The notes: generated by a model not told the origin, from the letters alone. A stretch of 64,000 bases of DNA from Bilabrum cf. latius (GCA_965178125.1 OZ237742.1:310001-374000); one strand, 5' to 3'; numbered from the stretch's first letter, positions 1 to 64,000 are shown. Translations and numbers: made by a program.

Positions 1-1
1 G

Positions 2-355
2 GGCAAGCTGGGCTCTCCGGAGAAGCCCCTCAGCGACCTGGGCAAGGTCTCATACCGGTCCTACTGGAGCTACGTGCTGCTGAAAGAGATCTACGACGCG
101 GGGGACGAGCCCCTCACCATCAAGGGGCTCTCGGAGCGGACGTGCATCACCCCGGAGGACATCGTGTCCACGCTCACCTCGCTCGATATCGTCAGATATT
201 GGAGAGGGCAGCACGTCGTGTGCGTCAGCCGAGCGGCGGTGGCGCGCTTTCTCGCCAACAACAAGTCTGCCAGGCACTTTGCCAAGCCAGAGTGCCTGCG
301 GTGGACGCCCCCGAAGATTCCGACCAAGGGAAAGGCAAAGGGCAGGAAGGGGTGA
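2..355 (+). CDS. MYST-family histone acetyltransferase (KAT5/KAT8/Esa1-like), C-terminal part; 5' end lies outside the window
   Basis: Frame from base 2 reads GKLGSPEKPLSDLGKVSYRSYW...TIKGLSERTCITPEDIVSTLTSLDIVRYWRGQHVV, the MOZ_SAS C-terminal signature. Ends in TGA at 353-355. Confidence 0.92.
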   Translation, partial: GKLGSPEKPLSDLGKVSYRSYWSYVLLKEIYDAGDEPLTIKGLSERTCITPEDIVSTLTSLDIVRYWRGQHVVCVSRAAVARFLANNKSARHFAKPECLRWTPPKIPTKGKAKGRKG

Positions 356-518
356 TTATAATAGGCGCAGGTGTGCCTGTATCCCTGCATCCTGGACATC
401 GAGTGGTGGGTGGGCCGGGGTAGCGTGTGCTGCTGTGTGATGCACCGGTCACAACCAACCCGCTTGTGGTCAGTCCATTATTTAGTCGCAACAACATTCA
501 TACAACACAACCATGGAA

Positions 519-3329
519 TCAATCAGTTAATAGGCACGTGCATGCCCAGACAACATCAGCGGCCTTTGTCCTCATTCCACGCATCTCAGTGGAGAGAACA
601 GCAACTGCTTTCACCCATGCGTCCGCACCTCGGACGTGGGCACCCTGCGCCGGGGACAGCTTGGGATGGCTGCGAGCCGACGCGAGGAATTCCCTCCAGC
701 GGTCCAGATCACTTGCACTCACGTCCAACCGCAATGGATCCTCACCCTGCTCCTCGTCTGCTCGTCTCTGGCACACGACTGCCTCGGGCTCGGGCTCGGC
801 ACCAAGCAGGTTCATCTCGCGCTCACTTGTGAGGTCGCTTGCCTGCTACCCGCCTGCACCGACCAACGCGCCAAGTATGCTACCTCGGGGAGCATGCACA
901 GCCCCAGCGCTCCCCGACGCATCCGCTCGTGCACCCCCCGCGGCACCCGCCAGGTCCTTCACCTCCACGTAGCTCCCCGTCGATTGGGTGTGTGCCCCGT
1001 GGCACGCCATGGGGCCCAGCAGCACCCTCAGCAGCACGTCCAGCAGGTTGGCCCGCTCCACAACCGTCACCACGTCGCGAGGGGAGCATGTTGCGCTTTC
1101 TGCACCGTCGCTCGCATGGCTCACGGAGCAGTCGGGCCAGGCTTCGGGCTGGTGCGGGAGCCAAGGTACCGCTCGGCCGATGCAGTCTCGTGGGGTGGCG
1201 CAGGAGAGGGGCAAGGAGCAGTCGCTGCTCGTGGGCTGCAACCCGTCCATATCCGACAGGAACACGCGCAAGCCGTCCTAACGACGGCCATCTCCCGTTG
1301 ACCCAGGCATGACCTGCCACTGGCTGGGCTTCCAGTCACAGATCCACCGACCCATCCCCCTGGCCTCGAGGACCGACTCCACCAGGGATGCCGCGATCTG
1401 TGTCCTCTTACTTGCCTCCTGGGCGATCAGCGCGAACGCTTGCCATTGCACCGACGAGTCGCTCGCGATGCTAGCAGGCCCCCGCTCCGGCAGTACAGAG
1501 GCACGCCGTATGGCTTGCGCCAGCCTGCCCTCGGACCGGACCAGCCACTCGTCCAGGGGAACCGCCCCAGCTGGCAAGTGCCTCACACCCAAGCTGCATG
1601 CTGACCCCTCCAGGCCGGGAGGACTCGCGGCGTAGCCAAGCAGGATGGGGCTGAGCCCCGCCCGCACCCTCCTCACGTCCCTCAGCACGTGGTTCTCCGC
1701 GTCAAGGTCGCACCTGTGCTCGTCCGACCACAGCTCGTATCGGAACATCTCTTGACACCAGCGTTGCGACAGGGCCCCGGGATTTTGCCCCGCCCTCGCG
1801 TCCCATGGGGGTGCTTCGGCGCACGGGAGATCCCGAGGAACAACTGTGCCGCCCTACTCGTTCCCTTGCGGGCCACTCGCATGGCGCTATCCTGTGGTCA
1901 GGAACGGCTTGCCGGAGCGATCGATCGCAAGCAGCTGCCGGTGGGCGACTCTGCCCTCGCCCATGCTAAGGGTTAAGCGGTCCCCATCAAAGCCAGCGTA
2001 GCTCGCTTGCAACGGACTTGCCATTCTGCCGAGTCCTAGCCGGGCAGGTGGGGCGTGCGGGCGCACTGCTCGCAGGCAGTCATGAAGGAGCCCCTCTCGA
2101 CTCGATTGACCCAGGCTGGGCGCGACCAACGGACGTTCCAAGGCATGTAGCATGGACAGTAGTTGTTCGACTGTCTCTGGATTGTCGCGCGAGACAGAAA
2201 GAGTTGAGGACCAGCCCGATCGGTCGCCCCCGAGGCTCGTCCATTGCAGGCAGGACAGCGGCAGCACCCGCTCCAGGTCGCACCTCCATCCCAAACCACT
2301 AGACATGCGAAGCCCGCGCCCAACAACTTTCCTTCCTAGCATTTTGGTCCAAGCCACCCGACCCTCGCGCGGCGGTGCGGTGGTAGCGCTGCTGCTTGCA
2401 GCCTGCTGGGAGGCGGCTGCAGGGTCTGGAGGCAACACCTCTTTGAACGTCCTCATCCAGGCCTCCCCATGCACGCAGGACTCAAGCACCGCATTCACGA
2501 TGCGAGAAGCTGCTCGGTCTGCTGGCGAGGCTCCGGGGGTGCTCGCCAGGCTTGCGCCACCGCAGGTCCTGGCATGCTGCTGCCTCGGGGAAGCGACTGC
2601 GGCGGCGCTCGAATGAGTTCCAGTGTTTCCGTTCCATGCCATGCGCGACACAGTGTCCCGAGCGGAGCATCCATCGTTGTTGCTGTCTGCCTGGTTTTGC
2701 CTAGCATTCGCTGAACCGAATCGCGACACAATGGTCCTTCCCAGGGCAGCTGCAGCGAGGTCGGCGCTCTCACTTGCACAGCCTAGCAGCGGCTGTTGAG
2801 GTTCTGATGAGTGTTGAATGCAATGAATCAATTGAATGGCGGCCAATAGCAGCTCGTGTTTGTCGTGCTCCGCCTGTAGGTCAAATGCTACAACAACCTG
2901 TGGCCAAGCTGCCTGCAACATGGTCAACTACTTCAAGCCAGCCAATATGAGCTCGGATGCGGACTCATCCATAGCAGCATGGCAAAGTCGAGCGTGGAAT
3001 CTCGTTTTTGGCTCTTGAGCACAGCCCACTGGCAGTTGTGATGTGCTGCTACCACCGCTGGATGGCAGCTGTGGCTAAGACCGGGGCTCCGACGGGGTCC
3101 TGCGTGGGGCCTATAGTTTGCAAACGCTCCTAGCGCTCTTGAAAATTGCTGAACTACACCCACTTCCGAGCTGAACGCACCAATCAGCACAGCTAGCTGC
3201 TCCCAAAGATTCGAATTCTGCCACGACTGCTAGCTGCTTCCTTTGCTCAGCACGTATCGATACGCGGATTGAGCGAGCCAACACACCAATAAACATCAGG
3301 CATGCCAATAGAAAAACTAGCTGATTCAT
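519..3329 (-). CDS. Hypothetical protein (~936 aa if TAG is sense) with a hydrophobic N-terminus
   Basis: ORFs 3111-3389, 1887-2927, 1278-1748, 846-1271 and 519-815 share one frame and are separated only by TAG. ATG at 3329 (MNQLVFLLACLMFIGVLA), TGA at 521-519. No family recognised. Confidence 0.6.
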
Positions 3330-3465
3330 ATTGGGAGCGGCATTTTCTTTGCCTGTCTTCGATTGTATATTATTTTGGAGGTTCCGCAATGTACAGCTGC
3401 TTCGCGGCGCCGTGAGGCGTCAGCGTTTTTTTTGGCAGAAGTAATTGCAGCTCCCTGGCCCCAAA

Positions 3466-5508
3466 ATGGGACTGTGCGGTTCTCAACCAGCCAATAGCGT
3501 TTTATCGCATGATACTGGTGCAATTGAAGAGAGCAAAGGTGGCAGCATGATTCTCACTCGAGCCAAGGAACGAACGGCAGCACGCGACCCTGACAATCCC
3601 GCTGAGGCAGGGGACAAAGGTGGGCCTGGCGACGGTGGTGCCGATGGCAGCGACGCAGAAGAAGAAGATATGGCAATAGGAAAGGGTGGCTCAATGATCT
3701 TTGGGATCGAGAACCCTGAGCTAGCCAGCAAGATGTGGGAGATCGGGCAACCGATAGTCAGGCCAAAGATGCTCAAATCATCCCGGAGAACCTACGTTGA
3801 TATCGGTAGAGGGAGATGTCTCAGAGTTACTTACAGCTACTCCAGCTTGCAGGGATTTTCGTCGAGGCCGCCGCAGAAACCGAACCAAGATAGCTTGCTG
3901 GTCTGTGACCACGTAGGCGACAGGAAGGACCTGTCCTTGTTCGCAGCGTTCGACGGCCATGGGCCAAAAGGTGAAGTAGCCAGCCATTTTTGCCGTGTGC
4001 ACTTGGAGGACGTGATGAAGTCCTCGAAGCGGTTCGGGCGAGATCCAATCGCGGCGTTGGCTCGCTCGTTTCCAAAGCTACACAAGTGAGGTATACGCCG
4101 CGGCGATAGTCGTTGCTCTCCGTCCTCGTACATAAATCGGTACCAGCTAGTAGCCGGAAGCAGCCCGAACAGCCCGTTTCGTTGGCAAGGCGCCGTGGAC
4201 TGCCTGCTGCCGTCACGACCCGTGGCTTACCAACTCGAAGCCCCGTCCTTCGTCTCAATGTGCGCCGTTTGTGTCATTCTATGAACCTTTTCGCAGGAAG
4301 ATTCGAGATGCCCCGGCTCCCGCATCCATTGATCGCACGTTTAGCGGGACCACGGCAGTCGCGGTGATGTTGCACAAGGAGCGCCTCGTGTGCGCTAATG
4401 TCGGTGATTCGAGAGCTGTGCTCTGCTCGAAAGACAGCGAACGTAAGTGTTTGAAACAATGGATTAGAGTCGTCTGATTCTCCTCCGGTTAATGCCTACA
4501 ATTAGTGAACAAGCTGCCTCGAAATCACGCCGTCGGCGTTATAGCTGCTTCTCCTTAGTATTGGGTGCCAGTGGCCTTTATTCGCTGCTTGAGCGGGATA
4601 ATGGCGCAATTTTGCTAGACTGATTAGTATTCGTACTCGCAGGCGAGGGGTTCGTGCTGGCCAGGCCGCTGTCGGTCGACCACAAGCCTTCGCGCCCCGA
4701 CGAGAAGGCTCGCATCGAAGCAGCCCCGAACTCCATCATCCACTCCGAAGTAGCGATCCTGCGGAAGGGCGACCGGGAAAAGCTGTACGTCTGCCGACGA
4801 AAGGGCAACCAGATCCAGTACGCGATCCTGTTCACCCGCTCGGTCGGGGACCAGGACGCGCACGAGAACCTGGGCGTGCTCGCAGACGCAGAGGTGCGCA
4901 GCATCGACCTGCAGGAGGGCCGGGACCTGTTCTTCGTGGTGGCCAGCGACGGAGTGTGGGACCACGTGAGCAACGAGCGCGCCTGCGCCATCGTGCGCGA
5001 CTGCGGGAACGACCCGCACCGCGGCTCGGAGGCGATCGTGGAGAGGGCGAGGCGGGGCTGGGAGACGGGGGGCAGCGGGAGGAGGGACGATATCACCGTC
5101 ATCGTGGGCAAGCTGGACTGGATCTCGAGCGAGCAGGCCGAGGAGGAGCAGCGCCTCGGGAGGCCGCTGGATGGGCCCGGCCTGGCGGCCCAGGGGTCTG
5201 GCCTCGAGGCGGGCAGCAGCGGAAGCGATGGCGAGCACGAGAGCAAGCAGTCGGCCGGCCGGGGGGAAGGGTCGAAGGCGAGCAAGAAACAGAAAAAGAA
5301 GGCCGGCGGGGGCAGCGACTCGGAATCTGCGCCCGGTGGGAGCACCGCCGCTCGATACGTGGGCAAGGAGGACGCTGCTCCTGAGGCCAAGGACCTGCAG
5401 CTCGACGATGCGGGGTCTGTGGAGGACTACGCGGCCCTGATGGCTGCGCAGGGCCGCAAGCCGGCCGGACAAGCGGCGGTCGAGCCACTGCCCGGCCAGG
5501 TGTCCTGA
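3466..5508 (+). CDS. PP2C/PPM-family protein phosphatase, 3 exons (3466-4085, 4297-4442, 4643-5508)
   Basis: Motifs KPNQDS, FAAFDGHG, SGTTA, ANVGDSRAVL, LSVDHKP, FTRSVGD, VASDGVWD, DDITV. GT-AG introns at 4086-4296 and 4443-4642 restore the frame. N-terminus MGLCGS suggests myristoylation/palmitoylation. Ends in TGA. Confidence 0.92.
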
Positions 5509-5705
5509 CGTGCTCAGGTGCCTAGAACTGCCGGTGCAGTGTTGTTCTGCGTGTCTTGTGAAGAGAGAGCGAGGTGACTGTGTACGCACAAAATGGTGCC
5601 CATTCAAGTTGCCAGTGCCACAGGCTGGCAGCCACCTGCAGGCAGTGCAGGCAGTCGTTGCAGAAAGCTGCCAGCAGCAAAATCCACAACGACCTTGCGC
5701 TCAGC

Positions 5706-6671
5706 ATGGAATTCGAAGAAACCGGAGTGCAGCAGTCTTCTGATGGCATTGAGTATACGCACCAGCAGGCAGAGCAATCAGAGCAGTTGAGAGTACACCC
5801 AGACATGGCAGTATTGCAAGACAGAGAGATTGGCATGCAACAGTCAGTTTTCGACCAACTGGAGGCAAATAGGGCGCGAGAGGAAGAAGAGAAGATGGAA
5901 ATGGAAAAGGCGTCAAGAGGATAGGCCAAGCTTGATAAAGAGGAGGCGAAGTTCCTGGACGGCGTCGAGGCCCAGCAACGAGCCCAGCACGCAGCTGCCT
6001 TGGCGGAGTTTGAGGGTGCTAGGGCCGAATTTATGAGGGCACAACAGCAAGGAGTTAAGTTGCGCTCTGGTGCCGATGTGCTGAAATCACTTTCCGTTGG
6101 CGTAGGGCTTGACCTCGGGGACGAGGAGGCCGCATCGAACGAGCCGCACGCCGACACAAAGATTGGTACCACGGCAGGGGAAAAGCGACACCACTCGCTT
6201 ATCGAAAAGGATCCCGCCATTGTGTAGATCCCGAAGAGCTAGTCCGGCCCGAAGCCAAAAAGGCGAAGATAGGTTACCGGGAGCGAGGAGCCTGCCAGTG
6301 AGGCCCTCCCGCAGCTGCCCATGCCCCGGCGATCTGGCATGGCCAGGCTGAAACGCGCAGTGGAAGTACTTGGTAGAGCAAGCGGCAGTAGCAGCAGCAA
6401 GCAGGTATCAAGCGGTCCCACACCCGCCAGAACAGATAGTAGCGGCGAACCGAGCACCATACCAGAGCCAGAGCCAGCTTCCAAGCGCGGGAGGACGGGC
6501 CCCTCGGATTCAGAGCCAGTATAGGGTGCTGTGCGCGCGCAAGGGTCTGCAGCCGATGGCCGAGCCAAAGCACAACAGGACAAGGGCTAGCGTGAAGGCG
6601 GCAGAGGAGCCATGCTTGCAGAGTATGCCTCCTCGAGCAGCGACGAAGACGACTCGGAGGGTGAAGGGTGA
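5706..6671 (+). CDS. PSME3IP1/FAM192A (NIP30/Fyv6)-like nuclear protein, 6 in-frame TAG
   Basis: SVFDQLEANRAREEEE...[TAG]AKLDKEEAKFLD resembles the FAM192A motif SLYExL...LDEDExxFLD. Reading through the TAGs gives an acidic C-terminus LAEYASSSSDEDDSEGEG, then TGA at 6669-6671. Confidence 0.7.
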
Positions 6672-6883: not shown

Positions 6884-7464
6884 TCAGCCGTGCCTAGCGT
6901 TCTGCCAATCCTAGGGGTCCGCTGCCCACTTCGGGGGTCCGGCAGGGTCATCAGCCTCGGCATACTTGTAGCGCAAGCTGCAGTAGTTGCAAGTGACCTC
7001 CTCCCCTGCCTTGAGCCGAATAAACTGGGCTGGATGGCCGGTTGCTCCGCCGCCTGCGAAAGAGAGTACCAGACTAGTCATGGCAATACGACTTAGAGCT
7101 TTATACATGGCTCCGCATAAGCCAAGCGCATTATTTTCTTACCTCCTTCGCATACAGCAAAGTGTCGACCCGATATCTCAATCGCGGGCACCTCCAATAC
7201 AGCCTCGAGAGCATCACTTTGGTGCTTTGGTCTAGTCTTGGCCTGCAAGAAATGATTGAATATGCAATCAAGCTGTCTCATGATATAACGAACTCTTCAC
7301 TGGTTCCTCCTCTGAGTAAAGTCACAACACACCTTATCGCTGTCTGGCTTGAAGCCAACGAATCGAACCCCAGTCGCTCTTGATGCAACCTTGATCCCCA
7401 TCACACTGCACTGCAGTACCTTTAAGCCACCTCGCCTTGCAACCGAACCGATTGCTCTCCTCAT
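6884..7464 (-). CDS. NDUFS6: NADH:ubiquinone oxidoreductase 13-kDa zinc-finger (zf-CHCC) subunit, 3 exons (7464-7333, 7242-7143, 7053-6884)
   Basis: Arg-rich transit-peptide-like exon 1 (MRRAIGSVARRGG). The spliced product has AVCEGGGGATGHPAQFIRL...TCNYCSLRY. Both introns are GT-AG. TAG at 6913-6911 is followed by DWQNARHG and TGA. Confidence 0.85.
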
Positions 7465-7595
7465 TGTTGGATAAACTTGAACTTGCTGTGTTGGGCTCTG
7501 TTTCGCGGGTTTATATCTTCATCTTTACATTTTCTAGGTGGTTGCAACCACGCGGTCGGTGCGAAAACCCTTGTACTGCCCAACCCTCGGGCGCA

Positions 7596-10500
7596 ATGAC
7601 AGGTTTTGGCCTCGTAATGATTCACAGGTAGCCACTTCATGCAGCTGCTGCGCGGGGAGACATTGAAGCTATTCGATCGGCCGTGTCCAGCGGCGCCATG
7701 GTGAATGAACGAGACGACGACGGCTGTACCGCTCTTATGCTAGCCATTGACCACCCGGATGCCGTGGCGGAGCTAATTCGCCTTGGTGCAGACGTTTCGC
7801 ATCAGCAGGGTGGAGCGGGTCTGACTGCATTGCACCGGTGTGCATATGGGGCAGCATCTCCAGAATCGGCTGCTGCAACCGCTGCGCTACTCGTCAGCGC
7901 TGGGGCCGATGCGAACGTCTTGGCAGACCGAGCGGATGGATTCGAAGAGTCTGTTGCTGCGGCGCATATCGCTGCGGCGAGAGGCAACGTGCCTTTCTTG
8001 CAAGTTGTGTTTTCGAACGGGAAAACAGGCGGGCCGCACCCCGGAACTGTGGAGGAGGCAGGCGCGCCGACGCGAAAACATAGAGGCCGCAGCGATGCCT
8101 CTTATGAATCGACTCGAACGGGCCCGGGCGCGGCTCGCGATCCGAGCGTGTCCCCTCCATCTCTCCCAGACAAGCCCGGCGCGAGCGCGAGCGTGGCCGC
8201 CCAGTCCTTGGCGCTACTCGGCGGGAGCTCGGCCGCGTCGATCGGCGGCAGCGGACCGTCCACACCCGTCGGTTTTCATCGGGCAGACACCATGCCGTCG
8301 ATCTCCATCGGTCCCTCCACCACTGGCACCCCCCGCTCCTCGCTGCCGGCTGCAGGCACCGCCCGCTCCTCCTCCTCCCGCAAGTCCAAGTCCAAGAGGA
8401 AGAGAGGAGCGGGGGCAGGAGGCACCAAGTCCAAGACCAAGCGCTCCAAGATGCCTGACATCAACGTCCGCACGCACAGGCGATGGACCCCCCTGCACTA
8501 CGCCGCCAACGCAGGACACGAGGAGTGCTGCGTGGTGCTGGCACAGCTCGGGGCACAGCTGGATGCCAGGGCCTCCTCCCCGGAGCACTGCACGCCCGCG
8601 GACCTCGCTCGGCAGAAGCACCACTCCGCAGTGGAGGCCTACCTCGAGGAACGCCTAGGGGCCCACGGGCGGTCCCTGTACCAGGCCCACCAGCGGGTCG
8701 CTGCCCTGCGGCGCCACCTGGACAAGGAGAACATCAGGGAGCTGGCCAGGCACGAGCGGGACAAGTTCCCTCTGGCGTGCGCGCTCACGAAGAAAGGCTG
8801 GACGCTGCTGCACGTGGCAGCCAAGGACGACAGAGTGGAGGTCATTCGGTTCCTGCTGCAGCCGCCGGGCGCGGACGAGTCATCGAGGAGGAGGGCGATG
8901 GCGGCGCGCGAGTCGCCGGCGGCGGCCGCTGCGAGCGCCTTCGACCCGCAGGGGAGATACCGCGTGGACCCGAATTTCCTGAACGAGAGCGGGTGGTCTG
9001 CGCTCCACGTGGCGGCGGACAAAGGAGCCTCTGACGCAGTGCACGAGATGCTCGTGGCGGGCGTGGACGCGAGCGTGCTGACCGCCAGTGGGAGGTCGGG
9101 GGCCGAGATTGCGGAGGCGAAGTCGCACAAGCAGATCGCGGCTCTGCTGCGGGCCGCGGTGGTGCGCCAGTCGGGGCTGGGCACGCCGTCGAGGAAGTCA
9201 TCCTCGAGGACTCTCGCGGGCTCCTCCTTTGCCTCTGGCGCTGGCGCTTGCGCTGGAGATGGAACGGGGATGGGGACGCCTGGGCAGGGGCTGGGCAGGA
9301 GCACGAGCGGAGGTGGGCCCGCGGGGACTCCGGTTCACGATGCATCGCCGGGCAGGGCAGGCAAAGGTGCCGCGAGCAGTGACTCGGGCAGGGGACTCTG
9401 GGGGGCGCAGCTGTCTGGGTTCGGAGGAGGAGGAGGCGGAGATGGGGCTGGGGCTGCGGGTGCGGGTGCGGGTGCGGGTGGAGAAGGGCCTACACTCGGC
9501 TCAGAGCACTCCTCGTCGCCACCGGGCGCCGAGCAGTAGGGCTCGGGGGCTGCCCCGATGAAGCGCGCGAGTTCCGGTGCGACCAACGCCGAGATGCAGG
9601 GGTTTCTGGACGCTCTGGACCTGGGGGAGTACTGCCCCATCTTGATCGAGGAGGGGTTCGAGACGCTGCAGCAGCTCTCGTTGGTGGAGGAGGAGGACCT
9701 GCGGGCCATCGGGATGAAGCGGGGAAGCATCCGGTGGCTGCTGCAGGCCTGCAAGTCGCTCCTTGCCAGCCACGCAGACGTGCCCGTGCAGCTGGCGCGC
9801 AGCGTCAGTTCAGCCGCTGGGTATCCCGCGCCCTCCGTTGCCCGCGCTGCAGTGCAGAAGGACCGCAGGGGCAGGGAGCGGCGAGGCCGCGGGGGCACGG
9901 AGGGCGATGCAGACGGTGTGCTGGACGAGGAGGACAGGGAAGAGGAGGACAGGGAAGAGGAGGACAGGGAAGAGGAGGGGGGCGGCATTCCTCGGTCCAA
10001 GTCGGAGAGGGCGGGGGGCAAGGGCAAGTCCAGCAGGAGCAAGCGCAACAGAAAGAGGAGGTTGCGACGCAAGAAGAACAAGCAGGCAGCCTCGGCCCCG
10101 GCAGGTGAAGAGGAAGGAGCGGGGCCTACCACGGACCCCTCCCCGCCGTCCTCGGCGCATGCATCGCCAGAGAACACCCCCTTCAGGGAAGCGCCTGCTC
10201 CTGTTCCCGCCGGCGTTCTCCCGTCGCTGTCGTCCTCTGCTGGTGGCCCTCTCAAGGTCCACCGGCAGTCCACCGGCACCTCGATCGTGTCCAGAGTCTC
10301 CTCCGGTGCAAGCGTGCGGTCGGCCCCGATCGGCGAGTCCAGGGGGTCCGTGTCGATCGAGAGAGAGATGGGCGCGGGAGCGGGAGCGTCTGGCACCACG
10401 CAGGCCGCTCCCGTGACCCGGGCAGATTCAACGGGCAGCAGTGCATCGAAAGGCCGACGGCGCATGCCCGACGAGCTCGACTACGGCGAGCTGGAGTTCT

Positions 10501-12104
10501 ACCAGGACAAGGGCTCTCGCCTGGGGGAGGGGTCCTTCGGTGTGGTGCGCAAGGCGCGCTGGAGGGGCACCGACGTCGCGGTCAAGTTCCTGAGAACCGC
10601 CACCGAGACCAGCCCGGACGACGTGGTGGACGCGAGGCCGGGGGCGGGGGCGGCGGGAGGCAGCTCGGGGGGATTTGGCCTCGCGGGTGCGGGCGGCTTG
10701 CGCCGCGGTGGACCCAAGGCACCGGATAGCCCCGCCCCACAGCCGCTGCCGGGCCCCGGGCCCGGGCCATTCTCGCTGCTGGGTAGCGGAGCGGGCGATG
10801 GAGTGCCTAGGGCAGCCCCGTACGACGACGTGGACGGCTTGTCGCGCCCTGGGGCAGCACCCGGGACCGCTGGCAACGGGGCCCCGCCGCCGCTCTCCCT
10901 CGCACCACCGGTCTCAGCCAGGCGGACTAGCTCCTCGTCCTCCACAGGCAGCAGGTCCGGCGCGTCCAGGCGCGCGTACGAGGCCGCCCTCCGCGAGCTG
11001 AGGCACGAGGCGGGGATGCTGCGGCGAGTCAGCAACCACCGGAACATCCTGCCCTTCGTGGGCGTGCTTGCCCGGCCCAAGCCAGCGGTGGTGACCAGCT
11101 TCATGGAGCGCGGCAGCATTGAGGACCTGCTGGTGCGCCAGGGCCCGAGGAACAAGAGGAGCAAGCTGTCCCGGTGCACTCTTCTGCAGATGGCGTGCGA
11201 TGCTGCTGCAGGGTGCCTGCACCTGCACGCCGCCAACGTCATCCACAGGGATCTGTCCGCCCGGAATCTCCTCGTGGATGACACCATGAGGGTGCGGGTG
11301 GGGGACTTCGGGTTTGCCAGGGCCAAGGCTGCCACAGTGTCCCGGGGGTACACTTAGTCCACGCAGGGTGCCATCCGGTGGCTGGCTCCCGAGGCGCTGC
11401 GGGCCCGCCGGTACTCGGAGAAGAGCGACGTGTTTTCGTTCGGATGCTGCCTGCTGGAGATGTTCGGTGGTGTGCAGCCGTGGCAGGGCTTCGAGAACTT
11501 CGACGCTCTGGTCAAGGTGTGCAACGGAGAGCGGCCTAGCATCCCAGACCAGGTGCCCGACCGCATCGCGAAGCTGATCGGGTGCTGCTGGCGGCCCGAC
11601 CCCAAGCATCGTCCCACGATGAAGAAGATCCTGGACGACCTCACGGGCATGCTCCAAGAGGCCAGGCGAGAGCATGCTATTGAGGGCGGGGGGAAGGACG
11701 GGGAGGGGGCAGGGGGGGGCATGCAGGCGGGGGGGGGCGCCGGGGCCGGGGGGGGAGAGGCTGGCGGACTGGTGGGCAGGAGCGACTGTGCCATCCCAAT
11801 CGGCGCGCTGTGCCCTGATGGCAGCAACATTCGGGGCTCCTCGGTGCGGTAGGCCAGCACGTACGACGACGTGACTGCTGCAGGTGCCGGTGCCGGTGCT
11901 AGTGCTGGTGCTGGTGCTGGCGCTGGCGCTGGTTCAAGTGGGAGCGGGGCAGACACTGACAGAAGTGATGTACATCCCATGGCATCAGCTCCACTTGGGG
12001 GTGAGTACCCTGGTAGCGACGCCTCGGCAGGAGCGACTTCAGGCTCTACGATCGAGAGCCTTCAGAGATAGCAGGAGGGCCCCGAGGAGGACGACGACCC
12101 GTGA
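7596..12104 (+). CDS. Ankyrin-repeat + SAM + TKL (Raf/MLK-like) protein kinase, ~1,500 aa, 5 in-frame TAG; start codon uncertain
   Basis: Ankyrin repeats (PLHAAAARGD, TALMLA, WTPLHYAANAGH, WSALHVAA). SAM domain at ~9590-9760 (FLDALDLGEYCPILIEEGFETLQQL...DLRAIGM). Kinase motifs GEGSFG, VAVK, HRDLSARN, DFG...[TAG]STQGAIRWLAPE, SDVFSFG. One frame with TAG at 7629, 9537, 11355, 11850 and 12069; TGA at 12102-12104. Confidence 0.88.
9927..9977 (+). repeat. Coding 15-nt tandem repeat (gaggaggacagggaa x3 plus a partial copy) encoding EEDRE repeats
   Basis: Directly visible exact repeats in the linker of the ankyrin-SAM-kinase gene. Confidence 0.85.
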
Positions 12105-30835: not shown

Positions 30836-38791
<7,956 letters not shown>

Positions 38792-50391: not shown

Positions 50392-50670
50392 GGTACCGCG
50401 AGACTTGCGGCTGTAGAATTTTGGTTGGTGTCGAAGCACATCCCGCACTTGCTGCGGTCGCAGTGTTCTTGACTATAATCCTTTCGTTCGTCTCCTATCT
50501 GACAGCCTTGAGTTCTACAGCTAGAACTGGAATGCTAGTCCCCTGTCACCACGCCGGGTTGCCATGACTAGGCCAAAATAGAGTACTTCTGAACCTGCAA
50601 CACCTCGAGCCTCTGATGAGATTCGGATCTGTAATTCTTCTCACATTTCAGCTCACTCGAATCGGTTCGC

Positions 50671-53085: not shown

Positions 53086-53379
53086 GCAGTCAGACACACA
53101 TCTGGCGGGCTGCTTGCTACATGTCATTTTTGCTACAGGCAACAAGTGGGGCGGAGCTGTCGAATTGGAACGGGCGACAGCTGCATCGTGCACGCTGCTC
53201 AGGTAAACCTACGCCTATCCTAGGATCAATGTGTTGAGAAATTCGTTCGGATTGATCGTGCTGTGTACTTCCAAGATAGTGACAGGTTGATTTGTAAGAT
53301 TCTATATCGATAAGACACATAATAAACAAGCAGCTATGCTAGACTAGTAAGTCACTCCTCCTGGCAACTCAGCAGTGAG

Positions 53380-56300
53380 TCAGCACTGCTGCGCCCCCTT
53401 CGAGTCCGGTGGCAGGATTGCTGGCATAGTATCTCGCGTTGCAGCAGGACGCTCAGTGCTCGTTACAGAGCGAGACGACTAATCCACGTGCGTGTTGTTG
53501 TTCTGCAGCAACCCGCCTCTCGACTTGTTTGCAGCAAGCGACCTACTAGACCCAGGCCTGAGCCGTCCTGGACTCGCCCTCTGCCTGCCCCACATGCATT
53601 CGCAACAGGAATCCATGCAAACATCGCAGCTACCCCGCTGGCTATTGCCTATTAAATGTCTCCTTGAGGCAGCACTAGCAAGGTGTAGCCGTCTACGGCC
53701 CAGGTGCAGCTCGTAGCAGCACACCGACTCGCACTCTAGTGCGCAACCCGCTCGTCCAATCTTGATGCACTTGCAGCAGAACGCGTCCGACAACCAGCGA
53801 AGCGTCCACCCGAGGCAGCACGACCAGCCGCACGAGAACTTTTCCTTCTACTGCTCGATCCATCCATCGCTACGTGCATCAGATGAGCTATTCTATGTGC
53901 CGTCTTCAGACGAATCTGCATCGCTGCTTTCTACCTCACCGAGGACGTGCGCGAGCTGGCCCTGATACTCTTTCGGCAAAGCAGCGTATGATCCAACGGC
54001 AAGACAAATGATAAAGAAGAATACATTGAGTCCAAGGACGACGTCTCCGATGACGCGACGAACTCTTTGCCCCCCCCCGTGCTCGCTGAGTGCCGCCTGC
54101 TGGCCCTCCGAGAAGGACTCCTGGAAGTCGCTGGGAACAGCGATGATCGGCAGCAGGGTCAGCATCAGGGCTACAGCGGACAGCTGCTCCAGCCTGTTGG
54201 CCAGGAGGGACCGCAGGGGCTGAAACACAGCCACAGAGTTTAGATGGACCACCACGAGGACGAGAGCCACGGCCACCTGCGCCGAGACGCCGACTTGCTG
54301 CAGAGAGGCCATAGACACCGCCAGAAAACCGCGTCGGAGCATATTTATAGATTCCCAATAAGGTGCACCTTGTCGATAGCTGGACAGCAGGTAGCTCAAC
54401 CGGTAGTTCTCTGTCCGGGACCGCTTGTCCTGGGAGCACGTGTAGTACATGGCGAGCATGGGGCCTCCGAGCGAGAGGAAGACGAGGATAGGGACGACGA
54501 TGCCGAACCTTGAAGCGGAGGTCGTCTCGCAGTTCACGTCGAGGTCCGCGCTGAGCCTGGACTAGAATGCAGAATCGTACCATCCCGCACCGGCATCGGC
54601 TGCGCTGTCCGCTTGAGCCGTCTCGTGGCCGGGGGGAAATCTGATGGCCAGACTAGCACCGGTTGCGTTGCTCGCCAGGGATGCCCAGTACAGTGGGGGA
54701 GCCTCGTCAAGAGGAACAGCCGCACTGCTTTCAAAGTCAGGCCCTACCATGGTGCAAGTTAGTAAAGCCACCGCTCTCGACGTGATAAATGCGTGGAGGG
54801 TCACCCCGACCACGGAGATCGCAAGGAGCACACGGTCTGCGTAAGACGGCTCAAACGCGGTTGGCGTGATGATTCGCCTGCGCTAACCTCTGCTTTTGTT
54901 TTTTCGCATGCGCACTACAGCCCGCAGCACAGTAACAGAGCCGCCTACGTGCGAAGATGAACGAGAGCTCTCCACCTGGGGAGCCCTAGCTTGCGGTCGA
55001 GGCGGCCGCGTCGGCTAGCTACGTGCTAGCGAAGGCAAGCTGGAATTCGATGCCCCCCACAAAGGGTTATTTGTCGAGTTCCCAATGCCATTCATGCCAG
55101 CCCCTATCGCCCTCATGCGCCGCAGATCGGAGGTCTGCACACGAAGAGGACCTGGTGTGAACCCAACGCTTCGTTGGGACCCAGCAGCAGACATAGAGCT
55201 GGGCATCTGTACGGTTCCCAGGGACGTCAGGCTCCTTCCACTAGTCATCATAGAGGGCGTGTGCGATGATTCTTGGCTCACGGTGTCGTGCATGCCGGCG
55301 TCCTCCTCGTGCTCAACGATCAGCGATCGGCCGCTCTCGAGCTGTGCTGACATCGTCCTTATAGCTGCATGTACGTCTACCCTCGGACGGTTGATCCGGC
55401 TACTCCGGCTGCCTCGGCTTGAGGTACGAGATGCTCGAGAGCCTACAGACATATTGCTGCCTTGTATGTGGCTACTGCTGCTGCTTCCAGCTTTGCTGTG
55501 GGCAGAAGACTGCTCGTTGGGGGGCGGTGCGGGGCTCTCCAGAGTTCCGGAGAATGGGAACCGAGCAGGGTTCTCCTCGTTTGTGCCCCCTTCATCAGTC
55601 AGATCAATGGATCTGTTCGATGCTCCAATCTGCAGATCCCGTCCTCGAACAGTCCAGCGACTCTGCTGCCCTGCCGACGGAATCGGGCTCGCACTGCCCG
55701 TGCTACGGTAAGTGCTTGAGTTGAGCACGTTGCTGGGTGCACCAAATTGATTCTGATCCCCATCGCTTGAATTACAGTCTTCATCGGTTTCAAGAATTGG
55801 TACGGCTGAACCGCTCAGTTTAGTGTCGGAGATCTCGAGAGGCTTCGCGATCCTCGGTGACGTGGTTAACATCTCCAGAGCTCCGGATTCTTGTCTTGAG
55901 TGCGTGTGGCGAGCCACGGCTAGTGACCGCTGCCTATGGACAGGCCTACGAGGAGCCTCCGTTTTCGTAGATCTCGCTGTCAGAGATCGTACAGAGTGCT
56001 CGGAAGGCACGTCGTCTCTCGCGACGGCAGCATCACTGCGAACCATCGACAGCACCCAGATGGGAATCGTTGCGCAAACGCCGAAGCCAAACAGCACCAG
56101 TACAACAGGCAGAGTAAGAGACATCATGACACGCAGAAACGCGGGTGACGACTGAAGAGGGATGCCGTCTACACCATACTCGAGAGAATCGCGATCGATT
56201 TCAGGTAGTACGGAACAGTCAGGTGACAGCACATCGATTCCGCCGGTCGTGCCTGCATCTGACACCGCAAAGAGTCGTAAAAAACCCTCAGACCACTAGG

Positions 56301-59300
56301 CATCAATGGCGCTTGCAATTGAGAGAACTTGCACGTGGCCTAAAATGACTCGCAGCACCGCGACCACGCCTGTCTTGTGCGATTTCTTGTCGATGTCCTC
56401 ATTGGCGTACTTGGCACCTGACCTGTGCGCCAGTAGCATCAGCCCACCGCAAGCTAGCATCGCGACTACGCACAGCCCAGCAAGCTAGAGACCAGCCTGT
56501 GTTGACTTGCACTCCAGGCAATCGCCAAAGGCAGAACGATGTCGACCAATCATGCACCGCTCGCAGCCCACACCAGCTCTTCCGTCTGCACACCCTTCGT
56601 GCGTGCTAGGCAGCAGGTCGGCATCGTCTCCAATTGCAGGAGATATCGCCACAGCCGACTCGAACTGCGTCTGGAGAGCGGTGAATGTCTCCTACTCAGT
56701 CGCGCCTGGTGGCACGAGAGAAGCCGCACTTGCCGGCACGATCGCTCTCCGTTGCTGGGGGTACTGCAAAGACGAGGCCCCCACGCACCAAGATGGCCGC
56801 CGGCAGCGCATAAATGGCAAATACTGCGACATGGCCCAAGGTACCCGCCATGAACCGTCGGCAGCAGTGCAATTGCCTTGGGACAGACCTCCGCACACGG
56901 CCATGGTCGCATCGACCGCTCGACAGGTCTTGCTGTCGGCATCCACCTCAGCGCCTGCCAAGTGCTAGTCGGCTCGACAAGACTCCAGCACTTCGGTCGG
57001 GGCCCATGTCCCAGCCGGTGCGGGGTTGTTGTTAGACATCGCACGGACTCGTACAATGAACGGGGCAGCATCGCTAGCAGACGCTATTGCCCTAAATACC
57101 TGGATGCCAGCGGCTGTAGGCGAAGCACTGCGAATTCTCGCGGCAACGTCAGGCGGGAGACCGGGGCTGAGGGGCAGCTATCGAGAATCCGGCAGCATAC
57201 TGGAAACGCTTGAGCCATCGTTTGATCCGGGGCGCGATGGGCTGCCCGGCACTGCGGGAATCGACGATTCACCCCATAGCACAGAGTCGCGCTCCAGCAC
57301 CGTGCGTCGAGCATCTACGAAAGCTGTGCTAGGATCTAGAACCGATTGCTGGATGCTGCTCAGGCGGATCACTTCCACCAAAAAGCCTGTTGCTTCTGTG
57401 AGCGTGTCTAGCGCGGCAGAAGAAGCCGAGCCTGCAGCGGTTAGTGCGTTGGACTCATCCGCCGGGGACGGGTACGTCCACATGACCTCGATCTGAGTGG
57501 GGTCTCCGATCGGTCGCCTGGCGTACACCGTCCAAGGTATCAAAGCTGGCACTCTTGCTCTGCTGGCCTGCTCCGTCTGCACCCTGATCCCTGTCGAGCA
57601 CACACGTGATCGCAGGCAGACGCGGACCACGGCGAACGGGCTGGGCACCGTGATCTGCGAGCCATTCAAACGTTCGATGAACTCGAGATGCAGCCGTTCG
57701 GCCTCAAATATAGGCAAGGAGCCTTCAAATGCAACTGATGGATTCCCCCCATCCCACGAACGAATGGGCACGAGTGAGAAAGTCGTGGACGCACCGGCCT
57801 GGGTTCGCCGCCGGCCGTGCACTTCGTCGTCGTACCACAGAAGCTCTGAGTCGTCCAGAGACGGAGACTGGCCCAGTCGAGGTACGACCGTCTCGACTAG
57901 CACACCCGTCACGTCATCTGGAGCATACCCCAGCGATGAACCGAACAGCTGCACCGGGACGGACTCGCGAATCAAGCGATCCGAGATGGCAGAGATCGTA
58001 GGCACGTCCTGCGTCTCTAGCAGCCCAGCCACGGCGGAGGACTCTCGGCCGCCGATCGAAACCTAGATGGAGTTCATTTGGGGCCACTGTTGAGCGACTG
58101 GTTCTACTCGATTGCATCGAACACAACTCGAGTTGTGCACCTCCATATCCTGGCACCGCCGGCCTGCGACAAGCATGCCGAGCAATATATCCCCACGAGA
58201 CGCAACAGCATCCATGTCAAGGAGTCCAGGAAAAAAATCAGTCCCGCAAACAAGAAGCCCACTTTCGGCAGTACCTCCAGCCCCGCTCCCGCTCAGGTCA
58301 TCCGCGAAGAGAATCCTGGAAGGATACACGGCAGTAGGCACCGGTGGGTCGTAGCTGAAGGACCCCTCTGCATGCAGACCGCCTCGCGTGTACACGCGCA
58401 CGAGGGCCTCGGCCACGAAGCCAGGAGTTGCGGTGAATACGAGCTCCAGAGGGTTCACCCACTACCACTCTGCCGACAACCAGCTCAACGATGAGTTAAC
58501 CACAACCCGCTCGATGTCGCTTGCAGCGGACCCGAGTCCACTCCCGACAACTCGAAGCAATGCGCCCCCTTCTGCTGGAACGCTTCCATGCACCACAGTC
58601 TGGACAAAAGGGGGCGGAACTGGCCTGATAAGATCCGGAAACTGGAATGTGTTTGTCACGTTACCCTCCACCATCGAGACGCGCACATCGGCGCTTGTCC
58701 ATTCAGCTGGATGCACCACGCCGGTGCATCGAAGCGTCGTATGCGAGAGAACGTCAATATCAGCGCAAGATTCGTTGCCGATCGAAACAGAAGCCAGTAA
58801 ATCTCCAGAAAATCCGACGCCGCGAAGGGTAAAGTCCGTCGATATCGATCCGTTTGAGGGCAGCACGCTTGCTGGGGAGACGGACTGGACCACGGGGTCT
58901 GCCGTGGAATACGATATGGCACCAGAGCTGGACTGGCCGTCGACCACAACGGTGACTGTCAGGTCCAATCCCGACACAGCAGGTGCCCTGCAATTAATCT
59001 ACGAATCAGACAAGTGCACCGGGCTGTCGCACGGTACGCCATTGATCAACACCGACGGGGTTGCGGTCGGAACGCGGCTAGCATTCGCTGCATCCACAGG
59101 TCTGCCAAAGCCGGTCCCTAGGATCTGCAACAAGCTGCCAGTTCCTGGAGAGCTCGCACGCGGGAGCACTCCCTGGGACGGTTGCACATCAACGACTTCT
59201 GGAGCAGCATACGCAACGGTGCCGGCAAGCATCTAGTCCGGCAGCACACCAGGAATGCTTGCTTCGAACGCAAGCAGCACCTGGCTCTGCACGCCAGTGC

Positions 59301-62300
59301 CAGGGGGCGCACTACAGCACAGCGTGTCCCAACCAGCCACACGGAGCTGTCCGCAATCTCTGCCTCCAACTGCAACTCGAGCAAGATCCTTCTCCACCAG
59401 ACCAAGGGCGATGACTGGAGACCAGTTCCGGAACAGACACAGCGTTGACCCGCCTGCTGTAGACAGCACAGGAACAGCATCAGCGGTGAAGGGCATTACC
59501 TCTGACGCGCCGAGTACGACCGTGCCATCCTCAAACGGCACGGCTGGGAGCATGAGCTACCTTGGTGAGAATGCCACGAGATCGCCGCGGAGAATGTGCA
59601 CTTCGTCGCCAAAATCAAAGGCTCGCACGATTGACCGCCCCTTCAGTTGATCTGTGATCGTCAGCGTGCTCATAATTTGCGTGCTGAGCCAGAGGCTTGG
59701 CCGGGGAAGTGCAACCGTCACTTCCCCGCGCTTGCTTTGATCCAAACTGCCGACAGGCACACCATCCATTACACTGCGCATCGAGCTGGGAGCCATTGGC
59801 AGCGAAGCCGGAGACACGCAACGGATGACCTCCCCACAGGCCAGTTTCATCAGGGATGCGGACGGCCCGAACTGCACAGGTGCAACCAGGGAGGGGTCAG
59901 CCACATTGTCCAAGCTGCCGAGTCCTAGGTACCTGCCAACACCCCAGCAGCGCACTTCACCCGTCTCAAGTACTGCACAGCTGTGACGATTGCCGACCGC
60001 GACCGACACGGCGCGGCCCCCGACCTGGTCCAGCCTAACTGGCAGCGGCGAGTCAGCAGGGTCGTACACGCTGGAGGTGTCTAGCCCAGTGCCAAGCCTG
60101 CCTTGTGCCCCGATTCCGAAGCACCGGACAGAACCCGTGTGCGTCAACACGCACGTGTGCCCACCGCTCGCACTCACTTCGATCGCTCGGTCGTCTCCCA
60201 GATCGATTCGGCGATGCTCTGCCGGATCCTCAACGCTCTCTACTCCGCGCCCAAGGCCAAGAGCCCCGGTCGAAGCTCTGCCCCAACACTTGCAGCTCCC
60301 ATCGAGCAGCACGGCACAGGCGTACGAGGCGCCCACGCTAATCTGCACGGCTGTAGAGTTGGCCTACCCCAGGACACCGTTCTGCACGAACCGGATTGGC
60401 CGGGACTCTTCAAACGTCGAAACGTCGTCAATGGTGCTGAATCCCACGTAACCTGCGCGTCCAACACACTTCACAGCACCGTTATTTTGAAGCACGCACG
60501 ATGCAAACTACCCAGCGCCTGCACCGATGGCCCAAGCGTCCTCTGTGGAGTTCGAAACACGGATGGCCGGCACAGCAGACGGGTCACGCACCTGCACCGG
60601 CACAGAAGGCCCGCGGCCCAGATGGGGCCCTCCTCTGCCCCACGTTGAAATAGTCCCGTCTGTGAGCACTGCAACGGTGTACCCTTGCCCGCACGCCACT
60701 GCTACGGCCTTTCCAGACGAGTTGGTTGGCAACGGCACGGGGGGCAGCCTCCAGGGCTCAGCCACGGCCGCGCTGCCCTGGCCCAGTTCACCGAACGAGT
60801 TGGACCCGAAGCATCTAAGATCCTGCCTGTCATCTATGACGCACGTGTGCTCGAAGCCAGCGGACACTAGCACCGCCTGCCTGTCGTTCTGCCCTCGCCT
60901 CTCATCCAGCTGCAAAGGGGGCACGCTCGATGGCCTCAAAATGTCCTCAGACTGATCCACGCCAAGGTTGCCTGAGATGGAGTCGCCGAAGCACTGCAAG
61001 TCTCCGACCTCGCTGACGGCACACGTGTGCGAGGCTCCTGCGCTCAGCTGCACGGTTCTCGGGCCCATTCCCCTCAAGCGCACCTGGGCAGCATCGAGGG
61101 GAGCGAGGACGGGGTCGTTGCCCCGCTACCCGTAGCCCGTCCCGGTGGCAAGACCGAAGCATCGCAGCCTGCCTGATTCCAAAGCGGCGCACGTGAACAT
61201 GTCACCGACAGACACGTCCACTACCGCCTCCCCCAGCTGCACGGCAGGCGTGTCTTCAGGGTCCAGAATGTTCGACTGGTCGCCCTGGCCCAGCTTACCG
61301 CCTAGGCCCTCGCCGAAGCAATAAAGGTCCCTGTCGATAGACAGCACGCACGTGTGCGCTACAGAGGCATAAACTTTCGCTACCGGTCTTAAATTTGGCC
61401 CGCATCGCCTCCGACGTAGCCTCCTTGGGTCGGGCACAGAGCTGGACGAGCTGCCGTAGCCCAGGTAGCGCCTGCCCCAGCACTTCAGCGTGTTGTCTGC
61501 AAGCACCGCACACGTGTGCGCATCTGCTGCGCTGACATCCAGCGCGCCAATCCCGCTCGAAGACAGTTCCACGGCTGTTGTCGTGCTCGGGTCGAGCACT
61601 CCGATCGTGAGACCCGTGCCCAATTGCCCCGCCCCGTTGTCTCCCCAGCAAATCACCCTCTGTGTCTCAGTGAGAGCGCAGGTGTGGCGAGCACCGGCAG
61701 ACACTGCGACTGCCTTCGTATCATTCGAGTCAAGGCGCGCGAGGCCCCGCTGGTACGGCACGTTCTGGTCCGTGGTACCAACGCCGCACTGGCCCTCGGC
61801 ATTGGCTCCCCCGCAGCGGACTCGGCCTGTCATAGCCTCGATCAGGCACATGTGTTCCCCTCCCGCGCTTATAGACGCAGCGCTGTAGTTCAGAGAGGCA
61901 ACGGCCGATGGCGATAGCACGTTCGCGTTTGAATCGGTGCCAAGCTGCTTCTCGCCGCCTTCTCCCCAGCACTTGACGTGGCGCTTCGGCGCCAGGATCG
62001 CGCACGTGAAGTAGTCTCCCGCGTCAATAGACAGCGGGCTAAGGTTCGACTCGGATGGGTCCGCAGGCATCGCGTAGTCAATTTCTGCTGCCATACTTGC
62101 ATCGGGGGCGGGGTTCAGGTCACCGCGGCCAAGCTGGCCCTTGGAGTTGTCCGTGCCAAAGCACTTGGAGCCGCCGCCGGACGACAGCACGCATGTGTGC
62201 GCTAGTCCCGATGTCACACGCAGTGCATCCGCGCCGTGGATGCACGACCTTGTGTGTGAGCGCTTTCCAGCCTCGCTGCTACTGCTGCCTGGCAGTGCGA

Positions 62301-63213
62301 GCGGCACGGATTCTACCACTGTCCAATTCTGCTTCGGATCGGATGGCTAGAAATTCCTAAGAGTCGCAACTCTTACATGAAAGTGAAGCAAGGGTGGAAT
62401 CTACCCATTATCAGCAACAATGTCATTACTACCCACGACCGGGTTGGCACTAGCCGCAGCATGCAGCAGGCTTGACGGAATTGCCACTTCCTGCGCCTGG
62501 TTTGGCTGCGATTCGACGAGCATGGCCCTGCCGCATTCTGGGGCTGCATTCCAGCCAAAGTGCACCGATCTAGCAATCGACGAGCTATTTGTAGTACGGG
62601 TTGAGTTGGACTACTGTTCACCCGGCGAATTCGAAACCAGAGCCCAGCTTCGCACTGTCGGGCGTGACAGAAAGTTGGCTGAGCTGCACTATGAGAAACA
62701 TGATTGCGTACCTGTTTGCACCTAAACGAGAAGCACAGCCCCCCACAACTACTGCAGGAGATTCCTATGACAATCGACCGCCGAGCAGCGACCGCTCGCA
62801 TCGTGGAGTTCGCCACCAGCCGTTTGGGTGGCATTGAGCTGCAGAGCCCCGCTTCGGCCAGGACCGCCAACTGATACGCCAATCCATATTTCACTGCATT
62901 GATGCGGCAACTTTGCCGCTCTGCTGTGTGATTCGTTGGCAGCATATACATGGGGCACACGGTGGTTCTCGTTTTGATCGAATCGCTGCTACGAATTGCT
63001 CTGCCAACGGACCCGAATCTCGTCGAACCAAGGGATGGCCGAGGCATTGAGTTGACTGAAATCTTTGCATTCAGATATTGTTCCCGGCTCCGCCCGTGAA
63101 CACCACGGCAAGTCCCCGAGAGGCCCAGTAGCGCACTACGCGTAGTTTGCCAATACACCTAGAGCAACCACTACGAGGGCTATGTTTGGGCGCCTCGGTG
63201 TGATCAAACTCAT
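53380..63213 (-). CDS. Giant (~3,280 aa) cell-surface protein: signal peptide, RCC1 repeats, IPT/TIG domains, Cys-rich segment and TRP/GPCR-like multi-TM C-terminus
   Basis: Single frame from ATG 63213 (MSLITPRRPNIALVVVALGVLANYA*C) to TGA 53382-53380, interrupted only by TAG. RCC1 repeats (SAGxxHTC...CWG.NxxGQLG) at ~59850-62230. IPT-like units at ~58050-59500. CADGRAGVGCERC..CLEC, then LRVILGHVQVL...*WSEG...DC and YLLSSYRQGAPYWESINMLRR. Confidence 0.82.
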
Positions 63214-63685
63214 TGCCACCAAAACGTTCGGGACTCAGCTTCGAACAATGGGAGCATCTATCCAGCACTACCGCAGGGTGGCGTAGAAAGATGTAGATAC
63301 GCCGTGGCACCATGCGTGTGCGCGGCTGCCGGAACATGGTCGAACATGGTCGCAAGCAAGGGCTGACACAGACCAGCATTCAACAAGCACGGCAGCGGAT
63401 TTCGCCTCTTCAAACTGTCAAACGCACAGCTGCACTTTACAAACCAAATCGGCGAGCCACGGGAGATTCTTCATCCGCCGGCCGGTGGCAAGAGCCGGTT
63501 GGCACGTCCATGATCCGCTCTCAACCAATACCTCCTGCAACCCTCCGATGGTCTTAGCATAGAATTTTGTATATACTACACCAAGTCAGCCATATTCCGA
63601 GGCATGAGAGGCAAGAAAATCCACAAATCATCACACTACCGGCACCTAGCTTCGACTCACATCCATTCCGTGGCACAGCCTTAAG

Positions 63686-64000
63686 ATGGCAACTGCTGCT
63701 AGCATGGCTTTACGGAGCGTTTCAAGATCAGTGCTATGCACTAGGCTGTTCAGGGCTCTATCGGCAACGTCAGCACTGGGAGTCCCCGAAACTGGGCGGT
63801 GGCGTCGCATGCAGCAGAGCCACGGCGTTCGACTGGCGTCAACTTTTGTTTCCTAGCACTACGAACTTCCTAATAGGGCGGTTCAGTCATACCTCGACGC
63901 CGCTGGCCTGTCGTTCCGGATTAGTGGCAAGCACGCTGTCGTTCGCGAGTGCCCATTGTGTGGGAAGCCATCCAAAGGCCGAGCAGATAACATGTACAAG
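63686..64000 (+). CDS. Mitochondrial-targeted protein, probably the N-terminal zinc-binding region of Twinkle primase-helicase; truncated by the window end
   Basis: Transit-peptide-like MATAASMALRSVSRSVLCTRLFRALS, then TFVS[TAG]HYELPNRAVQSYL...HAVVRECPLCGKPSKGRADNMYK. TAG at 63854-63856. Confidence 0.55.

Follow-up and report, generated by a model that had tools for sequence, protein, structure and literature searches.

The window analysed here is the whole 64,000-nucleotide (64-kb) stretch OZ237742.1:310001-374000 (GCA_965178125.1), and the system in question is the genetic code in which its genes are written. We read the window as part of the nuclear genome of a eukaryote that is probably a stramenopile related to the Cafeteria lineage and in which UAG encodes glutamine (Gln, Q) while UAA and UGA are stops, UGA being the usual one, and we assign this reading a probability of roughly 0.86. 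The same assignments are found in NCBI table 15. The initial annotation, made from the nucleotide sequence, had proposed that UAG is a sense codon and that UAA and UGA terminate translation, a proposal borne out by frame statistics, by protein domains that continue across TAG, by comparison with relatives, and by contigs that appear to be spliced.

The GC content of the window ranges from 0.56 to 0.69, and under the standard code its longest stop-to-stop frame measures 1905 nt. With TAG as sense, the longest frames become 9852, 9411, 8061, 4707, 4293, and 3849 nt, the first three being the TAG-rich frames of 8–10 kb that the initial annotation had described. Treating TAA as sense leaves the longest frame unchanged at 1905 nt, and treating TGA as sense gives a longest frame of 3867 nt, with no long domain-bearing frames above that maximum. 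The gain in longest frame obtained with TAG as sense over the standard code is 5.2-fold in the window, compared with at most 1.34-fold in the control set, which comprised the 20 loci of at least 8 kb among 80 metagenome loci fetched with the deoxyhypusine synthase (DHS) protein; none of these 80 loci exceeded 65% identity, and this metagenome search found no close relative. Across 12 non-overlapping frames with a total of 17,399 codons, 106 in-frame TAG were counted (6.1 per 1000 codons), while the two other frames of the same 12 regions carry 7.8 per 1000, indicating that TAG is not avoided in coding frames. All 106 breaks in the 12 frames are TAG, with no TAA, TGA, or frameshift among them, just as had been claimed, and TAG is present in every long gene of the window. 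Alongside 484 CAG and 180 CAA, the 106 TAG would account for approximately 14% of the Gln codons in these frames (106/770). Pfam domains running across TAG include Pkinase/PK_Tyr_Ser-Thr, Ank, SAM, zf-C2H2, DS, GtaA_6_Hairpin, DUF5127, RCC1/WD40_RLD, TIG, and EGF. The triplets at 11355, 13016, 26395, and 45874 are all in-frame TAG at the places described for them in the initial annotation, and in-frame TAG was likewise found in each of the EGF, RCC1, DHS, and LZIC genes that it had named.

UGA is the main terminator in the window. Among the 15 genes compiled in Table 1, 13 end in TGA and two in TAA; the earlier tally of 17 TGA and 3 TAA in 20 models agrees with ours in the predominance of TGA, although its count was not reproduced model for model. 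TGA is absent from the interior of the 12 frames, which reach up to 3284 codons and have an off-frame TGA density of 18 per 1000; such lengths with 0 TGA are far beyond chance and argue against any in-frame use of UGA. Additionally, the TGA ends of DHS, the glutaminase A-like protein GtaA, and the LZIC-like gene match the C-termini of homologues, the GtaA C-terminus agreeing with those of P0150 and P0149. Frames bounded by both TAA and TGA exclude the two codons by construction, and the count was redone on frames bounded by TGA only. Seven such frames of at least 2800 nt, comprising 14,359 codons, contain 92 TAG and a single TAA, whereas approximately 37 TAA would be expected if this codon were used like TAG (CAA/CAG is 155/384 in these seven frames). 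In-frame TAA as frequent as TAG, which the initial annotation had named as evidence contrary to its proposal, was not seen in the window. The lone TAA is found where the gene at 20188–29601 ends and precedes the closing TGA by one codon; when TAA and TAG are both taken as sense this 9411-nt frame gains only 6 nt and the other six longest frames are unchanged. In the ammonium transporter gene, third-position GC is 0.81 before the TAA and 9/19 codons after it (hand count). UAA is not a sense codon in the window, and it most probably terminates genes, few of which end in TAA in our sample.

With respect to the amino acid, alignments with relatives show TAG to be a Gln codon. A close relative is represented in the protein collection by open reading frame (ORF) fragments that are 90–97% identical to the window in protein, several of them on one 33-kb contig. 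Its genes were cut into pieces of 126–467 residues by a standard-code gene caller, the RCC1 gene being present as pieces of 136–412 residues, and this cutting indicates that the close relative also has in-frame stops. Fragments of this relative that cross TAG sites of the window carry Q at 6/6 of them (DHS-54; RCC1-957, 1226, 2313, and 2740; GtaA-795), in agreement with the Gln implied by the initial annotation. Moreover, P0304, a near-identical fragment, has Q at one further window TAG, and its own end falls before a window CAA. Other fragments end at the sites themselves: P0121, P0124, P0125, and P0153 stop immediately ahead of a window TAG, P0123 does likewise after one unaligned residue, and P0122, also from the close relative, ends before a window CAG. 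This pattern of ends in P0121–P0125 and P0153 is the one expected if TAG and CAG are synonymous and one transition apart. Judged from these alignments, TAG and CAG exchange freely between close relatives, and at least one close relative shares the UAG=Gln code.

An environmental relative at 66–78% identity shows Q, H, Q and E, Q at window TAG sites (Q at 3/5), and a window CAG follows the end of its fragment P0248; the code may thus extend to a wider clade that includes this relative. Its glutaminase A gene occurs in separate ORF pieces (P0151/P0299, P0248, and P0152/P0300), of which P0151 and P0152 may share one contig (the longest contig is 4247 nt for each). Among homologues at 44–56% identity, Q stands at the window TAG in 1/6 cases in P0149, in 3/4 for LZIC in P0306, in 1/4 for LZIC in P0307, and in 0/4 in the DHS homologues. 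When all non-closest homologues are considered, Q occupies 8 of 23 cells and is the commonest residue, the remainder being E, S, and A (3 each), D (2), and H, R, M, and T. In an alignment of 17 homologues the column of the DHS TAG varies and is uninformative beyond the closest relative.

Public sequencing runs containing the stretch number 12, none recorded as RNA, and four of them were compared over 44001–64000. Contigs of runs X5 and X7, which belong to two studies, join 44114 to 44224 across an intron of the LZIC-like gene (GT..AG) and 45932 to 46097 across the DHS intron (CT..AC on the plus strand), whereas a contig of X8 reads through the LZIC intron unspliced. The intron-less joints in X5 and X7, set beside the unspliced X8, suggest that the X5 and X7 contigs derive from spliced RNA. 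The first LZIC intron was assigned by reading GT..AG and the frame, while the second (44115–44223, GT..AG) is the one seen spliced in X5/X7; introns in the window are of the GT..AG type and 95–164 nt long. The DHS TAG at 45874–45876 is covered by the intron-less contigs with 0 differences in both X5 and X7, in keeping with the expectation in the initial annotation that TAG would persist in spliced RNA. Of the 42 in-frame TAG in the compared segment, 27 fall within the listed X5 pieces, also with 0 differences, and contigs of the independent runs X5, X7, and X8 carry the same letters, again with 0 differences. Spliced contigs with unchanged TAG exclude splicing-out, editing, and assembly error as far as the contigs show. 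Run X10 is the close relative itself; it covers all 30 depth bins, mostly with pieces 90–95% alike, and 1512 substitution places were listed over the 20 kb. This relative is about 8% diverged in DNA (about 92% identical). As a separate observation, X5 and X7 each have one contig that matches just 22 letters at 44718–44739 and 54088–54109, two places separated by 9.3 kb, the flanking loose ends being the same in both runs; it is probably the transcript of another locus that shares two short stretches with the window.

An Rfam scan of the window gave no match and no rRNA, and the placement of the organism was examined with the DHS gene. The best named DHS matches were Cafeteria roenbergensis (68%) and Hondaea (64%), followed by brown algae, diatoms, and Pelagomonas, while identity to chytrids and to the aphelid Paraphelidium was 63%. 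In an IQ-TREE phylogeny of 34 rows, the window and its relative were sister (90/61) to a clade (97/93) formed by Cafeteria, P0007, P0008, P0012, and P0013; all of these fell inside a 12-row clade (97/95) that includes Paraphelidium, and the chytrids were located in a separate clade. In a FastTree phylogeny of 118 rows, the window fell among ochrophytes (support 84), inside a 79-row clade to which Cafeteria also belongs (support 93). The two trees differ in detail, and for this reason no fine placement is claimed. A C-terminal DHS motif, GER..TAEL..W, is found in the window, the relative, Cafeteria, P0007, and P0008, and weakly in P0013, and it is lacking in the other rows shown, among them Paraphelidium, a chytrid, Hondaea, and Pelagomonas. 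The top distant matches of GtaA came from a dinoflagellate, an amoebozoan, and a diplonemid transcriptome and carried no taxonomic signal. On the evidence of the single gene DHS, the organism probably belongs to the stramenopiles, close to the Cafeteria lineage, and the stramenopile label of the initial annotation thereby receives moderate support.

Decoding of this kind would need a tRNA-Gln with anticodon CUA that pairs with UAG and not with UAA, together with an eRF1 whose N-domain no longer recognises UAG and still recognises UAA and UGA, an expectation that follows the argument made in an earlier account (PMC5304391). According to the same source, CUA is the one anticodon compatible with a table in which UAG is read and UAA is not, and the anticodon is an identity element for glutaminyl-tRNA synthetase (PMC5304391); given that role of the anticodon, this enzyme would be expected to be adapted as well.

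Several of our observations weigh against the reading of UAG as Gln beside terminating UAA and UGA. The library type of X5 and X7 is not recorded, an automated guess giving 'RNA?' and, for X5, 'probably DNA', and the RNA nature of both is deduced from the intron-less joints. Many TAG columns are variable or non-Q in deep homologues, as seen above for P0149 and DHS, and the column of the kinase activation-loop TAG holds E/K/H in a PDB alignment of the TKL kinase, which is uninformative. TAA ends only two of the 15 genes, one of them with a TGA a codon later; with so few TAA ends, the main grounds for taking UAA as a stop are that frames lack it and that the ammonium transporter ends in it. A tRNA scan of the window found no tRNA gene, nor was there an Rfam match; eRF1 is not among the genes of the 64 kb, and the tRNA(CUA) and eRF1 part of the account is, given a window devoid of tRNA genes, pure inference. 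Finally, with 15 genes in the sample, some genes may still end at TAG.

This last point bears on a code in which UAG would have two meanings, Gln inside genes and terminator at some ends, depending on context. Context-dependent stops are known for UAA in Blastocrithidia and for all three stop codons in Condylostoma. Our gene models read through every TAG by design and would mask a genuine TAG terminator, and C-termini could be checked against homologues in only 3 of the 15 genes. However, all three checked genes (DHS, GtaA, and LZIC) end in TGA, no gene requires a TAG stop to match its homologues, and GtaA continues beyond a TAG that lies ten codons from its end into a tail conserved in P0149 and in P0150, the latter with Q at the TAG site; we therefore consider the dual meaning unlikely. 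A code in which UAG and UAA are both Gln (UAR=Gln; NCBI table 6 is of this type), with TAA merely rare in a genome of 60% GC, has been reported for many ciliates and ulvophytes. It would agree with TAA being the rarest stop triplet over all plus-strand frames (199, compared with 463 TAG and 812 TGA), with the two TAA ends among 15 genes, one followed a codon later by a TGA, and with the labels of some runs containing the sequence (algae or protist metagenome), which would suit a parasite of algae such as an aphelid. The single TAA set against about 37 expected stands at the very end of its TGA-bounded frame, though, and approximately 53 TAA would be predicted in the 12 frames from the density of this triplet off frame (3.0 per 1000). 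The coding signal of the ammonium transporter, furthermore, stops at TAA. As for the aphelid, the DHS tree groups the window with the Cafeteria clade and not with the chytrids, and the C-terminal DHS motif is common to the window and Cafeteria but not to Paraphelidium. Taken with these counts, UAR=Gln appears very unlikely.

If UAG instead specified another amino acid known from other reassignments (Glu, Leu, Ser, Tyr, Lys, or Trp), the E, S, A, D, H, R, M, and T found in deep homologues would be accommodated. This is hard to maintain, and we deem it extremely unlikely, in view of Q at 6/6 sites in the closest relative and one more in P0304, of Q being the top residue at every distance, and of P0122 and P0248 ending before a window CAG and P0304 before a CAA, the mirror image of an exchange between TAG and Gln codons. 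The suggestion that the TAGs are untranslated, being assembly errors, pseudogene lesions, RNA-edited sites, or tiny introns, is barely conceivable: no evidence in support of it was found, the 12 frames show one kind of break only (106 cases), the X5, X7, and X8 contigs carry the same letters with 0 differences and the spliced ones retain the DHS TAG, and five TAG positions are kept as ORF ends in the close relative despite its DNA divergence of about 8%.

The reading of UAG as Gln with UAA retained as a stop has counterparts in a small number of other lineages. UAG and UAA are described as nearly always reassigned together, with a handful of nuclear lineages in which they are decoupled (PMC11687900, PMC5304391). 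UAG=Gln with UAA as a stop is described for Iotanema spirale, Protocruzia tuzeti, and two phyllopharyngean ciliate lineages (PMC11687900, PMC5304391), UAG=Leu for the uncultured rhizarian exLh (PMC5304391), and UAG=Ser for Scotinosphaera (PMC11687900), whereas Amoeboaphelidium protococcarum is reported to use both TAG and TAA for Gln (PMC5304391, PMC6299283). Like the window, Iotanema has only UAG reassigned, to Gln, keeps UAA as a terminator, and is predicted to need a tRNA-Gln(CUA) and a changed eRF1, the change being T32G in the GTS motif; in contrast, it belongs to the unrelated Metamonada, and UAA is described as its dominant stop (PMC5304391), where TGA closes 13 of 15 genes here. The codon table of the phyllopharyngean ciliates and P. 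tuzeti is the same as that of the window (PMC11687900); those ciliates have a code-change history of their own, whereas the window is GC-rich, has GT..AG introns of 95–164 nt, and groups with stramenopiles in DHS. Amoeboaphelidium is likewise a non-ciliate in which a stop became Gln and accompanies algal cultures, a setting that some run labels might suggest here too, but it is reported to read TAA as Gln, a codon absent from the window frames, and the DHS tree and motif favour the Cafeteria clade. In exLh and Scotinosphaera, UAG and UAA are decoupled as in the window, the amino acid being different (Gln at 6/6 sites here). In-frame UGA, a trait of Condylostoma/Blastocrithidia-type codes, does not occur in the 12 frames, and in-frame UAA, the trait of UAR=Gln codes, is confined to the one terminal TAA against 92 TAG.

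The initial annotation had considered the reassignment possibly undescribed. In the full-text literature searched, a scope that leaves out most subscription journals, no nuclear stop-codon reassignment is reported in a stramenopile, and a 2024 overview of stramenopiles has 'genetic code' only in a reference on mitochondria; this agrees with that suggestion. What we have seems to be a known codon table (UAG=Gln, as in Iotanema) in a new lineage, and an earlier publication is possible.

Table 1. Genes of the window read with TAG as a sense codon; positions are counted from the first nucleotide of the window.
Gene or product	Position	Strand	In-frame TAG	End	Details
No-Pfam frame, 966 codons	519–3419	-	7	TGA	
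PP2C-type phosphatase	3445–5508	+		TGA (5506–5508)	Several exons; motifs in translations, no Pfam match
FAM192A/Fyv6 N-domain protein	5562–6671	+	6	TGA	Pfam
Ankyrin-SAM-TKL protein kinase	7395–12104	+	5 (11355–11357 in activation loop)	TGA	Pfam
C2H2 zinc-finger array, 12 fingers	12308–14098	+	4 (13016–13018 inside finger)	TGA	Pfam
No-Pfam frame, 580 codons	14538–16280	-	2	TGA	Ala/Arg/Glu-rich C-terminal half
Ammonium transporter	18158–19759	+		TAA (19757–19759)	Pfam; lower-GC sequence after the end
3137-codon frame with protein kinase domain	20188–29601	+	25 (26395–26397 between HRD and DFG)	TAA (29599–29601)	TGA one codon after
2687-codon frame with kinase domain	30728–38791	+	14	TGA	
Secreted-type EGF/teneurin-like repeat protein	39539–43390	-	6	TGA	Pfam
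LZIC-like gene	43585–44373	+	43648, 43663, 43669, 43857	TGA	Three exons (43585–43671, 43767–44114, 44224–44373); homologues (PF06384)
Deoxyhypusine synthase (DHS)	44482–46234 (Pfam-bearing frame 44482–46035)	-	45874–45876	TGA	164-nt intron (at about 45933–46098)
No-Pfam frame, 1431 codons	46345–50640	-	8	TGA	
Glutaminase A-like protein GtaA (DUF5127 + GtaA_6_Hairpin)	50635–53085	+	6 (51067, 51103, 51178, 52291, 52393, 53053)	TGA	Pfam
3284-codon RCC1-repeat + IPT/TIG protein	53380–63234	-	27	TGA	Pfam

Additional features were observed in and around these genes. The C2H2 array contains a tandem repeat at 13046–14080 with an 87-nt (29-codon) unit in 11.9 copies at 87% identity, and units so alike indicate that its fingers are recent duplicates. 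The spacer between this gene and the minus-strand gene at 14538–16280 holds another repeat (14132–14342), composed of a 53-nt unit in 4.0 copies at 98% identity, and the C-terminal half of the product of that minus-strand gene can be read as coiled-coil-like from its composition. The EGF/teneurin-like protein carries cysteine-rich modules at its two ends, separated by a long region rich in Thr, Asn, and Val; it is a possible mastigoneme-type protein, an identity that would have a bearing on placement among stramenopiles. In DHS, a C-terminal extension of about 140 residues (44482–44900, minus strand), low in complexity and rich in Ala, Gly, and Glu, is lacking in 16/16 of the more distant aligned homologues and kept in the close relative P0001. 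Long frames also lie antisense to real genes, at 4578–5513 (minus), 9335–11353 (minus), and 40947–42032 (plus), with a third-position GC of 0.81–0.86; they result from GC-rich codon usage and might be taken for genes.

We lean slightly towards the view that the window documents the first nuclear code change known in stramenopiles, that UAG=Gln with UAA as a stop arose independently in a GC-rich lineage related to Cafeteria, and that the code is shared by a clade comprising the organism of the window, the close relative with about 8% DNA divergence, and probably the environmental relative at 66–78% protein identity. Each decoupled lineage constitutes a natural experiment on how one eukaryotic release factor drops UAG yet keeps UAA, and such lineages pose a second question, namely how a tRNA-Gln(CUA) comes to be charged. 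The protist of the window is GC-rich, not a ciliate, and apparently free-living or associated with cultures, and its addition would extend decoupling over a broader range of lineages; here TGA is the main stop, and a close relative permits comparison site by site. Standard-code gene callers shred these genes, and as a consequence the annotation, phylogenomics, and metagenome binning of the lineage will be wrong until the code is set. If our reading is true, a lineage with existing genome and transcript data could serve to study how eRF1 discriminates between UAG and UAA.

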